Below are positions 26,834-32,266 of a stretch of 64,000 bases of DNA, piece by piece. The translations under genes were made by a program, and so were the position numbers. The stretch lies in IMG/VR virus record IMGVR_UViG_3300028586_000001, positions 22,762-86,761 of that record, one strand, 5' to 3'. The DNA is from a virus (taxonomy: Duplodnaviria; Caudoviricetes). The number at the start of each line of letters is the position of its first letter. The stretch's first letter is position 1. Under the pieces are notes generated by a model. It saw only the letters and a program-made list of their open reading frames with translations, did no database searches and was not told the DNA's origin.

Positions 26834-28198
26834 ATGCAACCACAAACCCGCCTCATCGTTGATCTGTCATCGATCCTGTGGTCCTGCCTCCTGGTAGGCA
26901 AGGACATCGAGTTCGGCCGTCAGGTCATGTTCGCCCCTGAAGCTGAACCCGGTCAGGAACCGAAGGAGCCGAAGTCGTTCCAGGTCAACAGCGCCATCTT
27001 CGGCTACGAGAACGTCGTCAACCACTTCGTGTCGGTGCTCAACCGCTTTGAGTTGGCCCCGATGGACATGGTCCTTGTGGTCGAGGGCATTAACACGAAG
27101 GCGCTGCGTCAGTCGATTCTGCCGCGCTACAAAGCAGGTCGTGACCGCCCTGATGACTGCTATGTCGAGTTCCAAAAGCTGCGCGAGATGATCGTCAGCA
27201 CCTTCACGGGTCTCGGCGCCATCGCGGTCACCCAGGACGGTATCGAGAGCGACGACGTGATCACGTACCTCTGCCGTGTCCTGCCGGGTCGTAAGATCAT
27301 CGACTCCAACGACGGCGACCTCTGCTACAACATCTCGGACGGCAGCGTGCCTACCGAGGGTGTTTCGGTCTGGAAGATGAGCAAGGGCATGGAGCTGACC
27401 GAGAACCCATACGGCCCGTTCACTTGCCAGTACATCCCGCTGTACAAGGCCATCGTCGGTGACACCGGCGACAAGATTCCCGGTGCCAAGGGCTTCGGTG
27501 AGAAGACTTGGCTGGACTTCCTGTGCAACTTCGATGAGACCAACATGGGCGAGATTCAGGACCTCATCAAGGGCAAGCGGTTGCACGAGCTGGCTGACGA
27601 TGTCCCTACCTTCAAGCCGTTCCAGAAGCTGATCGACAACGCCGACATGGTGTGGCGCTCGTTCCAGTGCTCGAAGCTGTACCCCGAGATCATCAACACT
27701 ACCCGCAAGCCGTTGGTCTGGACCCCAGGTATGGTGCGCCCGCGTCACACGTTCGATGACGACCGAATCAAGCACTGGGCAGGCCAGACGCGGCTGGTGC
27801 ACGCCGGGAATTACACCGACGCCGTCAAGTGGATGAAGGGGTTCCTTGCCGAGTCCCCGTTCATCTCGTTCGATATCGAGACCTCGTCCAACGACACCGC
27901 TGACCAGTGGCTGGCCACCGCCAAGACCAAGTCCAACGAGTCCAAGGATGCCGAGGGCGTTGACGTGTTCGGTGCCGAGCTGTGTTCGTTTGCGCTGACG
28001 TTCGGTCGCAACATGCAGTACACGCTGTTCTTCACCGTCAGCCACGTCGAGACCGACAAGGTCAAGAACATCACGAAAACTCAGGCGAAGGCGGTGCTGG
28101 AGCTGCTGCCGAAGTCCAAGGTAAAGGCGATCCAGAACGTGTCGTTCGAGTTGCCTATCGTGATGGAAGAACTGGGTGAGCTGGAGGAAGCAGAATGA
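26834..28198 (+). CDS. polA: DNA polymerase A, N-terminal fragment (5'-3' flap exonuclease + ExoI/ExoII of the 3'-5' exonuclease)
   Basis: LIVDLSS, ESDDVI, SNDGDL, IVGDTGDKIPGAKGFGEKT; then FDIET and QNVSFE. Confidence 0.85.
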   Translation: MQPQTRLIVDLSSILWSCLLVGKDIEFGRQVMFAPEAEPGQEPKEPKSFQVNSAIFGYENVVNHFVSVLNRFELAPMDMVLVVEGINTKALRQSILPRYKAGRDRPDDCYVEFQKLREMIVSTFTGLGAIAVTQDGIESDDVITYLCRVLPGRKIIDSNDGDLCYNISDGSVPTEGVSVWKMSKGMELTENPYGPFTCQYIPLYKAIVGDTGDKIPGAKGFGEKTWLDFLCNFDETNMGEIQDLIKGKRLHELADDVPTFKPFQKLIDNADMVWRSFQCSKLYPEIINTTRKPLVWTPGMVRPRHTFDDDRIKHWAGQTRLVHAGNYTDAVKWMKGFLAESPFISFDIETSSNDTADQWLATAKTKSNESKDAEGVDVFGAELCSFALTFGRNMQYTLFFTVSHVETDKVKNITKTQAKAVLELLPKSKVKAIQNVSFELPIVMEELGELEEAE

Positions 28199-28590
28199 CC
28201 TTCGAGCTGAACATCCCGGCTACTGTTGCGATTGTGTTCTTCGTCATCGCCTGTGGGATGATCATGTGGGAGAAGCCTTTCCTGGCCTGCATCTCAATGA
28301 TCTTCACGGTTGTTTCTGGCATCACCTACTGCGAGGGTCGCCCGGAAGCCGTTGCTGAGCGGAAGGCTGATGCAGAAGCAGCCCGCCGTGCTGCGATCCC
28401 GCATGTGATCCGCGAAGCTGATGGCTGCAAGGTGTATCAGTTCCGGGCCAACGGCCTGGAGCATTACTTTACCCGCTGCCCTGACTCGGTCACGACCGAC
28501 CGCCACTACCAGACGAATGAAAAGTGCGGGAAGAACTGCACCAAGACCATCGACCACGTCGAGACCATCGTCACAAAGGAGCAACCATGA
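28195..28590 (+). CDS. hypothetical membrane protein inside split polA
   Basis: ATGA overlap with polA-N stop; two hydrophobic segments. Confidence 0.7.
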   Translation: MTFELNIPATVAIVFFVIACGMIMWEKPFLACISMIFTVVSGITYCEGRPEAVAERKADAEAARRAAIPHVIREADGCKVYQFRANGLEHYFTRCPDSVTTDRHYQTNEKCGKNCTKTIDHVETIVTKEQP

Positions 28591-29988: not shown

Positions 29989-32266
29989 CATTACCAACTA
30001 CCGGGGCTTCATGGCCAACGTCCACGACACGAAGATCATGTCGTCGTATGTGGATGAGAACTTCAGCAACGGCCTGAAGCAGAACTCCAAGCTGTACCTG
30101 GGCTACGAACAGGTGTCGTATGACGATGTGACCACCAAGACCGGCACGCTGGCCGACCTGCCCCCAGGTGGCCGGATCACCAAGGACGAGCACTGCATCG
30201 ACATCGAAGCCCTGCGCGACATGGCCCCGAAGAAGCAGGCTGCATGGCTTGCCAAGCGTGGCTACTCGGACGTTTACGAAGCGGTCGAAGCCCATCGCAA
30301 CCGCACCGTGTCCAAGCAGTACCGCATGAACGAGTTGCGCGCTGAAGACGTGCTCGACTACGGGGCCGATGACACCATCTGCACCAGCGCTCTGTACAAC
30401 TTCTACCGGCTGATGATGGAAGTCGAAGGCACGTTCGGTGTCTACGAGAAGGTCGAGGTCAAACCCTCCTACATGACCGCCCTGTCGTATGTGCAGGGTG
30501 CGAACGTGTCGGTGGAGCGCCTGCGTGAGCTGGAGCGGGCCGACGACAAGGTCTTCGAGAAGGCCCGGACTACACTGACTGAAGTCCTGCTGAAGAAGGG
30601 CATCCTTGACCAGATGTGGAAGCCATTCCTTGAATGGACTGCTGCCGGTGTCAAGGATGCCTGCGAGGACTTGTTCGGCTTCCGGCCTGAGTCGATGCGG
30701 CGCAAGCCCGATGCACTGGCCATGGACATCATGACCGAGTCCGGTACTGGCGAGGGCGATATGTCCTTGGTCAACTTCTGTGACGCTGTCAAGCGCCAGG
30801 ATGTGAAGTTCATCAACGCACTGTTGCTGACGAAGTACAAGCAGGACCCCGGCCTGGACGTGAACTCGGCCAAGAAGATGAAGGTCTTCATGTACGACAT
30901 CCTGAAGCTGCCGATCCGCGTGACATCGAAGCTGACCGAGATCAACTACAAGTTCGACCGTGAGCTGGTCAAGGCTGTCCAGAAGTTCAAGAACGCCCTG
31001 ATGAAGGGAGAGGAGCCGAAGCTGACGCCAGAGGAGTGGAAGCTGGTGCGCACCAAGGCATCGACCGATGACACCGCTGTTGACTTCGCCCTGATGTACG
31101 ACAAGGACACCGACCCTGACCTTGAAGTGATCCTGAACGCCATCTCGGACATGAAGCGCGTTTCCACCCGGCGCGGCCTGTACTACAAGCCGTACCCATA
31201 CCTGAAGCACTGGAAGGACGGGAAGATTCACTCGTCCATGAACCAGTGCGCGACGGTGACGCGCCGCTACTCATCGTCAGGCCCGAACCTTCAACAGCTC
31301 CCGAAGAAGGGTGAGGGTGTGAAGATTCGAGAGATGATCATCCCGCACCACAAGGATGCGGTCATCGTGTCCCTTGACTTCTCTGGCCAGGAGCTGCGAC
31401 TGGCAGCGCACATGTCGCAGGACAAGAACATGCTGGCTTGCTACATCGGTGACAACCTGAAGGACCCGCACTCGATCACTGCGGCCGGCGCCATGCTCAA
31501 GAAATGGGGCAAGGACAAGGTCGATGAGTTCAAGTTGCTCGTTGGCGCTGACAAGTTCAGTGGCACCAATGAGGAAGTCGAGTACACCGTCTTCATCAAG
31601 CTGCGCAAGTGGGATGACGATGCCATCGCCAAGCTGGCTGACGATCTGCGAAAGGTCGCCAAGAACGTGAACTTCGGCGCGCAGTACGACGCCCAAGCAC
31701 TGACACTGGCATACACGATTGTCATCCCGGTCAAGGACGCACAGGACTTCCTGGATGCCCGTGAGAAGATGTTCCCCGGTGTCAGTGAATGGAAAGACGA
31801 CGTGCGCAAGCGTGTCGAGCGCACCGGCCACGCGATGACGCTGATGGGTGCACGTCGCCACCTTGCCAAGCTGCTCCGTGACCGCTCGACGGCCAGCAAA
31901 GCCGGTCGCCAGGGTCCGAACTTCGAGATTCAGGGTTCGTCGGCAGAGCAGACCAAGCTGGCCATGGGCGAGGTGTGGGACAGTGGTGTGATGTTCGACT
32001 ACGACTGCCAGTTCGTTGCACCAGTGCACGATGAGCTGGTGTTCTCGATCCACAAGGATCATGCGGTCGATGCGATCCGCATCATCCATGCCTGCATGAC
32101 CAAGCAGTACCACGACATGACCGTACCCTGCATGTCATCGATCTCGCTGGGTCCGAATTTCGGTGAGCAGATCGAGTGCGGTGACTGGTTCATCGAAGAC
32201 AACATCCGTAAGGCCCTGGACACCGTGTTCTCCAAGGCCAAGGAAAAAGAACTGGAGGCAGCATGA
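29978..32266 (+). CDS. polA: DNA polymerase A, C-terminal fragment (ExoIII + polymerase domain)
   Basis: HDTKIM, YGADD (ExoIII), PNLQQLP, DFSGQELR (motif A), KNVNFGAQY (B), VHDELV (C). Confidence 0.92.
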   Translation: MVSDITNYRGFMANVHDTKIMSSYVDENFSNGLKQNSKLYLGYEQVSYDDVTTKTGTLADLPPGGRITKDEHCIDIEALRDMAPKKQAAWLAKRGYSDVYEAVEAHRNRTVSKQYRMNELRAEDVLDYGADDTICTSALYNFYRLMMEVEGTFGVYEKVEVKPSYMTALSYVQGANVSVERLRELERADDKVFEKARTTLTEVLLKKGILDQMWKPFLEWTAAGVKDACEDLFGFRPESMRRKPDALAMDIMTESGTGEGDMSLVNFCDAVKRQDVKFINALLLTKYKQDPGLDVNSAKKMKVFMYDILKLPIRVTSKLTEINYKFDRELVKAVQKFKNALMKGEEPKLTPEEWKLVRTKASTDDTAVDFALMYDKDTDPDLEVILNAISDMKRVSTRRGLYYKPYPYLKHWKDGKIHSSMNQCATVTRRYSSSGPNLQQLPKKGEGVKIREMIIPHHKDAVIVSLDFSGQELRLAAHMSQDKNMLACYIGDNLKDPHSITAAGAMLKKWGKDKVDEFKLLVGADKFSGTNEEVEYTVFIKLRKWDDDAIAKLADDLRKVAKNVNFGAQYDAQALTLAYTIVIPVKDAQDFLDAREKMFPGVSEWKDDVRKRVERTGHAMTLMGARRHLAKLLRDRSTASKAGRQGPNFEIQGSSAEQTKLAMGEVWDSGVMFDYDCQFVAPVHDELVFSIHKDHAVDAIRIIHACMTKQYHDMTVPCMSSISLGPNFGEQIECGDWFIEDNIRKALDTVFSKAKEKELEAA

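Follow-up and report, generated by a model that had tools for sequence, protein, structure and literature searches.

We analysed a 64,000-nucleotide window of the virus record IMGVR_UViG_3300028586_000001 (bases 22762-86761 of a single 86,761-bp contig), in which the gene for a family-A DNA polymerase (PolA) lies in two pieces, broken within the region encoding the 3'-5' proofreading exonuclease. The sequence and its relatives suggest that this is probably a fixed gene fission of a phage polymerase, giving a two-chain enzyme with a proofreading site assembled in trans, and that the four open reading frames (ORFs) now filling the gap are later cargo. From sequence, we infer that the N and C chains physically associate. 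The record is a metagenome-assembled viral genome, rated 100% complete and with direct terminal repeats; its GC content is approximately 58% across the window, and the polymerase region is no outlier. Positions given below are those of the window unless stated otherwise.

The first half of the polymerase gene (N-gene, 26834-28198, + strand) encodes 454 amino acids (aa) comprising the 5' nuclease and strands 1-4, the opening part of the 3'-5' exonuclease fold. It matches PF02739 (36.3 bits, cut-off 34.3), PF01367 (5' nuclease) and phrog_107. ExoI is present as DIET, with D347 (nt 27872) and E349 as catalytic residues, and ExoII as QNVSFE, which begins at Q434 (nt 28133) and contains the key residues N435, F438 and E439. 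A short acidic tail, LGELEEAE, closes this half. The second half (C-gene, 29978-32266, + strand) encodes 762 aa with the last strand and helices of the exonuclease fold followed by the thumb, palm and fingers, and matches PF00476 (E 5e-62) and phrog_17 (E 7e-86). The motif HDTKIM lies at residue 15, followed by ExoIII as YGADD, with catalytic Y128 (nt 30359) and D132, and by polymerase motifs A (DFSGQELR), B (RKVAKNVNFGAQY) and C (HDE, read as VHDE). The C-gene therefore holds the family-A polymerase domain with motifs A, B and C, and the DnaQ-like exonuclease motifs ExoI (DxE), ExoII (Nx2-3[FY][DE]) and ExoIII (Yx3D) are all present, distributed across two chains. What is a single ORF in intact relatives is here two genes 1.78 kb apart. 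We also observed that ExoII reads NxxFE in intact and split members of this family alike, versus NxxYD in Klenow, so that the metal-binding carboxylate is a glutamate family-wide.

The 1.78-kb gap between the halves is filled by four translationally coupled ORFs (orfA, orfB, orfC and orfD), giving a run of six consecutive + strand genes from the N-gene to the C-gene. Starts and stops overlap at all five junctions of this run: as ATGA between the N-gene and orfA (28195-28198) and between orfA and orfB (28587-28590), as GTGATG between orfB and orfC (29165-29170) and between orfC and orfD (29524-29529), and over 11 nt between orfD and the C-gene (29978-29988). Shine-Dalgarno-like (SD) sequences precede the starts; for example, GGAGGA within the last codons of the N-gene serves orfA. 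No sigma-70-like promoter was found in 25400-33500, and terminator-like matches in the operon region did not outnumber those in shuffled sequence; the clearest of them (25773-25795) lies upstream of the operon. The six genes form one operon without internal promoter or terminator signals. On rechecking the sequence, the gene coordinates, motif positions, HDTKIM start of the second half, gap length and four coupled ORFs reported in the original prediction, which had been made from this DNA alone, all proved exact.

That prediction had also suggested alignment with intact PolA, which located the break precisely. Vibrio phage K478b has an intact polymerase of 1326 aa; the N-gene product aligned to its residues 20-480, and the C-gene product began at residue 482. 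Because the two halves cover the intact protein in this way, the break is clean, without loss or duplication of polymerase sequence. Approximately 40 relatives in IMG/VR, at 33-49% identity, have one uninterrupted ORF across the break point, where they read ...FELPVLYNAWGDKWKDNGWHGFLPNVLDT...; this stretch varies in length among relatives and corresponds to an indel-prone loop, WGxxWxDNGWxGFLPN, which is uninterrupted in at least 35 intact relatives. A duplication of the ExoII helix at the break was considered as a candidate and dropped, as the N tail and C head are collinear with intact loops.

We used an AlphaFold2 model of the exonuclease domain of an intact relative (L013), built from an alignment of 35 intact sequences, to place the break in the fold. 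The mean predicted local distance difference test score (pLDDT) of this model was 90.9, and Foldseek matched it to phage G20c PolI, ExnV1 and Klenow with probability 1.0. A sequence profile of the intact exonuclease domains also retrieved these three proteins; a phmmer search of the PDB with one exonuclease domain gave no match. In the model, strand 35-43 bears ExoI, helix 118-129 begins with ExoII and helix 196-223 contains ExoIII; the break maps to coil 130-144, immediately before strand 145-147. The coding sequence is thus severed where the DnaQ-like proofreading fold has a solvent-exposed coil. The N chain contributes four strands with ExoI and ExoII, and the C chain contributes the strand that follows, the ExoIII helix and the entire polymerase domain. 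On this assignment, the modelled exonuclease fold can be completed solely by both chains jointly, because neither contributes all of these elements.

The split was not confined to the window phage. Protein searches retrieved approximately 30 N-halves of 420-480 aa with a common end point and, using the first 260 residues of the C-gene product, 20 C-halves of 712-762 aa with a common start point; 22 homologues of the N-gene product were seen to stop where it does. Weaker C-gene matches were single chains of approximately 1070-1260 aa, except for four (686-853 aa; one of just 467 aa). N- and C-halves paired on contigs of equal length (33088, 86481, 87253, 84584, 85588, 84919, 87462, 84785, 37333 and 5633 bp), and the split architecture was present in approximately 20 independent public assemblies, down to approximately 50% identity, with approximately 20 N-halves of 420-475 aa alongside the 20 C-halves. 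The 23 closest split forms made up one clade in trees built from the N part (approximate likelihood-ratio test support of 99 in the first tree and 100 in the second). As it is conserved across relatives in this manner, the split is neither an assembly artefact nor decay. Other searches for relatives yielded little. The region had no blastn match in a phage record collection, in which tblastn found relatives at 26% identity or less only. Viral scans with the N-gene of the window and with the proteins P0015, P0004 and P0010 found nothing, and a scan with P0026 found one relative, L165, with an intact polymerase. One metagenome scan and one scan of genome contigs with generic patterns retrieved distant or intact relatives only.

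Within the split clade, the residues required for proofreading have been kept. Across the N-halves, D347, E349, F438 and E439 do not vary and N435 hardly varies, and the ExoIII tyrosine and aspartate (motif YGxDD, Y-x3-D) are present in all 20 C-halves. To gauge constraint, we compared pairwise identity of the exonuclease parts with that of the polymerase and 5' nuclease parts in split and intact sets. At polymerase identities of 0.6-0.7, identity of the C-terminal part of the exonuclease was 0.574 in split versus 0.584 in intact forms. For the N-terminal part, the corresponding values were 0.579 versus 0.593 at 5' nuclease identities of 0.5-0.6, and 0.728 versus 0.677 at 0.6-0.7. This matched-divergence comparison of identities gave no sign of relaxed constraint on the split exonuclease domain.

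Comparison of close relatives separated the split from the genes in the gap. The 86,481-bp record L004 has halves that are 68% (N) and 80% (C) identical to those of the window phage, and a gap of 1.2 kb with three ORFs: homologues of orfA (56% identity) and orfB (41% identity), and a 75-aa ORF (phrog_2358) that is missing from the gap of the window phage. In the 84,785-bp record L166, which is on a basal branch of the split clade, the halves abut without any insert. There, the stop of the N-gene and the start of the C-gene share an ATGA, the two genes being in different frames; the SD of the C-gene lies in the coding sequence of the N tail, and the joined loop is approximately 6 residues longer than in intact forms. 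Both orfA and orfB were absent from the whole, complete records of L166, L040 and L027, the last two of which have intact polymerases. Since the halves abut in L166 and gap content varies between close relatives, the split is independent of the four gap genes. These genes look like arrivals after the split.

A different gene occupies the same loop in L164, the contig encoding the split N-half P0029. Here the N-gene ends ...FELVVLKNTADV and the C-gene starts MGGLMVDDIWHGFLPNVRDT, and the gap holds a single 221-aa ORF that overlaps both neighbours and encodes a free-standing HNH endonuclease (phrog_374, E 5e-55; phrog_3377, E 3e-46). In the trees P0029 grouped with the intact L040, away from the clade of the window phage. 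The short N-halves P0026, P0027 and P0030, as well as P0024, P0028, P0032 and P0033, were also found among intact forms, and at least three changes of state between intact and split are required by the starred branches of the trees. An approximately unbiased test rejected a single clade of all split forms (delta log likelihood 319, p 2.6e-5), the group having been named after viewing the first tree, and the split label of all but P0029 being taken from protein ends alone. As judged from these sequence trees, the split of L164 is independent of that in the clade of the window phage.

We propose the following mechanism. The two chains would re-associate non-covalently by complementing a single exonuclease fold, and the re-associated chains would form a complete enzyme with a proofreading site composite across both. 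The four gap ORFs would have come after the split, and would be neither parts of the polymerase nor the cause of its fission. We are less sure of how the split arose. Free-standing HNH homing-endonuclease genes may insert repeatedly into the loop between ExoII and ExoIII, in which case one of them could have invaded, as in L164, and later been lost or replaced. Because no homing endonuclease is present in the window, L004 or L166, this origin for the clade of the window phage is argued by analogy with L164. Alternatively, a small indel could have created a module of SD, stop and start, as in fissions of the S-SBP1 type (PMC10201439), with insertions following. The sequence of the L166 loop, with its approximately 6 extra residues and the SD in the N tail, is consistent with insertion of a short module or with the scar of a deletion, and not with a 1-nt frameshift. 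By either route, the gap would then have become a tolerated landing pad. A bolder version of these events, which we regard as a long shot, is that the loop is a true homing site hit several times independently, that the broken loop acts as a 'safe harbour' locking genes into the operon, where their loss would endanger the essential gene, and that gap proteins (two with winged helices and one in the membrane) were recruited to control chain assembly, making a switchable proofreader or mutation rate.

We weighed other explanations for the split gene. It is unlikely that the halves no longer cooperate, such that the N chain would be a flap or 5' nuclease with a dead exonuclease remnant, the C chain a proofreading-deficient polymerase, and fidelity, if any, the work of a DnaQ-like exonuclease. 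A stand-alone gene for a DnaQ-like 3'-5' exonuclease does lie 1.4 kb upstream (24743-25468, + strand, 241 aa; PF00929, E 1e-14; phrog_192 'DNA polymerase exonuclease subunit', E 7e-40), and related phages (JWF; L042, L043, P0035) have the 5' nuclease in a gene of its own. However, the DnaQ-like gene is no compensation for the split, because it occurs equally in relatives with split (L004, L166) and with intact (L040, L027) PolA. Loss of cooperation is also difficult to reconcile with a split clade that retains the catalytic residues of ExoI, ExoII and ExoIII and whose exonuclease parts are constrained as in intact enzymes, and the break gives the C chain just one strand plus helices from a fold that is unable to close alone. 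Where the original prediction had left three options, with the exonuclease site assembled in trans, or proofreading tunable or lost, the kept residues and constraint favour assembly in trans and disfavour loss. Several observations nevertheless weigh against a two-chain proofreading enzyme that arose by fission: the upstream DnaQ-like exonuclease could in principle proofread; binding of the two chains is a prediction from sequence and from a model of an intact exonuclease domain; P0024, P0026, P0028, P0030, P0032 and P0033 were labelled as split from their protein ends alone; the window, L004 and L166 contain no homing endonuclease; and ExoII has glutamate in place of the aspartate of Klenow, as it does in intact relatives.

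The remaining alternatives are less probable. We consider it rather improbable that a two-chain enzyme assembles but that one or more gap proteins (the winged-helix products of orfB and orfD, or the membrane protein encoded by orfA) join or regulate its assembly, making its proofreading or polymerase activity tunable. Such a role would suit the translational coupling of the four ORFs between the halves, the retention of orfA and orfB in the same place in L004, and the occurrence of orfA homologues on at least eight contigs with split halves. However, L166 is split without any gap gene, so none is needed, and gap content differs between close relatives; the orfA family is moreover widespread, in many unrelated contigs and Burkholderia genomes, and we found no link of orfA, orfB, orfC or orfD to polymerases. 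It is very unlikely that one full-length polymerase is produced, whether through splicing of RNA or of protein, through ribosomal bypass or through excision of the 1.78-kb insert from the DNA, even though phage polymerase genes do sometimes contain introns, inteins and bypass elements (the LUZ24 intron; fractured genes, PMC2677866). A group I or group II intron was rejected, as Rfam found no ribozyme core and no other family in 26000-33000 even at E ≤ 1 and the gap is full of coupled ORFs with SD sequences. A split intein or fractured gene was rejected on the grounds that the N tail and C head each extend only approximately 8 residues past homologous sequence, leaving no room for intein halves, and are collinear with intact homologues. 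Excision of the insert was rejected because there are no flanking repeats to support it, with only short chance repeats seen. In L166, furthermore, stop and start overlap as ATGA and the halves do not share a reading frame. The absence of an intein, of an obvious intron and of a homing endonuclease in the gap, all stated in the original prediction, was thus borne out for the window, where orfA-D match no nuclease family. Finally, an assembly error or a decaying pseudogene, which might be suspected of a metagenome-assembled record, has a negligible probability given the same architecture in approximately 20 independent assemblies down to approximately 50% identity, intact reading frames with conserved catalytic residues, and a complete record with direct terminal repeats. 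A fixed fission with assembly of the proofreading site in trans is the reading we favour. The original prediction had missed that the split is clade-wide and independent of the gap genes, that an HNH gene is present in the same loop in L164, and that there are precedents in LUZ24-like phages.

That fragmented phage genes can remain functional is already established. In phage Aeh1, nrdA is split by mobE (Friedrich et al. 2007, as cited in PMC10448857), and NrdA-a and NrdA-b together form an active two-polypeptide enzyme, which depends for its activity on the tails at the break (Crona et al. 2011, PMC3045599). Like Aeh1 nrdA-a/mobE/nrdA-b, the polymerase described here is an essential replication-related gene cut into two genes translated separately, without intron or intein, with short new tails at the break. 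Unlike Aeh1, where the gap holds the causative HNH endonuclease mobE and activity has been demonstrated, the gap here contains four non-nuclease ORFs, and activity is predicted from sequence. Measured against such 'genes in pieces', the present case has a conserved gene broken without loss into pieces that each start and stop on their own; a free-standing gene for a homing endonuclease was found between the halves in L164 only. In the T4-like Aeromonas phage 25, and also in 44RR, gene 43 is divided into 43A and 43B, and the products co-purify and polymerise (PMC2988022). For phage 25 the same review states that the endonuclease may have invaded an already split gene. These are likewise replicative polymerases in two cistrons for which the endonuclease as cause or as later invader is undecided, but they belong to family B, and their gap is a seg endonuclease or an untranslated spacer and not a multi-gene cargo.

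Closer parallels exist among family-A enzymes. LUZ24-like Pseudomonas phages have for a long time been annotated with a 'DNA polymerase part I' and 'part II' parted by approximately 8 small ORFs (PMC3890496; NC_010325), and therefore resemble the window phage in having a family-A polymerase in pieces with several small ORFs, including a membrane protein, between them. We checked NC_010325 and found that LUZ24 gp25 (169 aa) holds ExoI, ExoII and ExoIII together, and that gp30, one of the gap ORFs, is an HNH_3 endonuclease. The LUZ24 break is thus at the boundary of the exonuclease and polymerase domains, whereas here it lies inside the exonuclease fold, with the 5' nuclease fused to the first half. 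In the window phage no complete exonuclease domain is separated from the polymerase domain; ExoIII sits on a different chain from ExoI and ExoII. The exonuclease-polymerase fission of S-SBP1-like T7-type cyanophages was reported as the first family-A case, and a complex of its products was predicted (Czernecki et al. 2023, PMC10201439). There, as here, PolA has undergone fission into adjacent genes in different frames with solvent-exposed termini, and the abutting state of L166 resembles S-SBP1. In S-SBP1, however, the break is between domains and involves a 1-nt frameshift without insert, whereas the present one is between ExoII and ExoIII, with a loop approximately 6 residues longer and genes inserted. 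Fractured genes with split inteins, in which a homing endonuclease separates the two halves (Dassa et al. 2009, PMC2677866), also consist of a conserved gene broken in two with foreign ORFs between, but they carry intein halves that splice the protein, for which there is no room here. Split polymerases with a small gap ORF have additionally been described in OM43 phages (PMC10580990). New in the present case are the position of the break inside the exonuclease fold between ExoII and ExoIII, the fusion of the 5' nuclease to the first half, and the four-gene, non-nuclease cargo.

The four gap genes are presumably accessory cargo. A direct Pfam scan of the four ORFs gave no match, and by family searches and direct comparison none resembles a nuclease, a transposase or the L164 endonuclease. 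The first, orfA (28195-28590, + strand, 131 aa), encodes a small two-helix membrane protein of the DUF4884 family with a Cys-rich C-terminus. More than 230 homologues carrying PF16225 were found, on many kinds of contig and in Burkholderia genomes. The product of orfB (28587-29168, + strand, 193 aa) has an N-terminal winged helix, a Pro-rich linker and a conserved C-terminal three-helix domain, and belongs to a tiny family with 15 cluster representatives among 1.84 billion proteins. Its AlphaFold2 model had a pLDDT of 78.7 overall and above 90 in the winged helix, with the linker disordered, and Foldseek matched it to generic MarR/PadR-type winged helices (root-mean-square deviation 1.3-2 Å over approximately 69 residues) with a weak E value of approximately 0.01. 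Within orfB, a 65-nt stretch (28837-28901) consists of nearly three tandem copies of a 24-nt unit encoding PSPVALPV repeats of the linker, the length of which differs among 14 homologues.

The gene orfC (29165/29168-29527, + strand, 119-120 aa) probably starts at the ATG at 29168. It has no Pfam or PHROG match and no homologue in five related records, and it has the weakest coding signal of the four, with a GC content at third codon positions of 0.645 compared with 0.81-0.84 in the polymerase halves. The last gap gene, orfD (29524/29527-29988, + strand, 153-154 aa), with a likely start at the ATG at 29527, matches phrog_21581 over residues 93-150 (E 5e-10), and its C-terminal end is zinc-ribbon-like (CxxC...C). 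No homologue of orfD was found in L004, and L166 has a weak zinc-ribbon match elsewhere in its record. Atlas structure searches for orfB and orfD gave leads only, among them a possible winged helix predicted for residues 2-94 of orfD. The idea that orfD is a degenerate HNH gene was rejected, as it has no similarity to the L164 endonuclease. The orfB/orfC (29157-29174) and orfC/orfD (29516-29533) junctions have 16 of 18 bases in common, GGxGGxAGTGATGGCTA, which comprises an SD, the stop and start, and then Met-Ala. This likeness could be a gene-cassette recombination joint, or merely a convergent coupling signal.

We made several further observations on this genome and polymerase family. The first gene of the operon (25822-26502, + strand) matches two PHROG families with conflicting labels: phrog_2252 (E 7e-49; 'endolysin; inhibits RNA polymerase') and phrog_801 (dATP/dGTP pyrophosphohydrolase). 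Elsewhere in the window phage, at 18701-19537 of the record and approximately 3.2 kb before the start of the window, a gene encodes a 278-aa HNH-like endonuclease (phrog_3377, phrog_374 and phrog_8790); phrog_3377 and phrog_374 are the PHROG families of the endonuclease that splits PolA in L164. In L058 (11781-12727) the polymerase match is interrupted for approximately 950 nt, in the same frame, between C-gene residues 563 and 560 inside the polymerase domain, which may represent another insertion (intron, intein or endonuclease). The family also has a second break point, at which the 5' nuclease becomes a separate gene of approximately 260-310 aa, in Achromobacter phage JWF (L002, 5884-10070), L042, L043, L059 and L061, and in the proteins P0035, P0038 and P0042. 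In JWF, two small ORFs lie between the 5' nuclease gene and a 910-aa exonuclease and polymerase gene.

Taken as a two-chain enzyme, this polymerase would complete a single DnaQ-like catalytic fold over two polypeptides, with two motifs on one chain and the third on the other, an arrangement that would have been kept by selection in a whole phage clade. If this reading is true, it would provide a natural fragment-complementation system for the PolA exonuclease and a candidate for split-enzyme engineering. For annotation, it is a warning that calls of '5'-3' exonuclease' and 'DNA polymerase' in such phages may be the two halves of one enzyme. The relatives form a graded series, from an intact gene, through an endonuclease in the loop and abutting halves, to cargoes of three and four genes. 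This series offers a means to study the routes by which essential genes fall into pieces and by which accessory genes come to use the breaks as landing pads.

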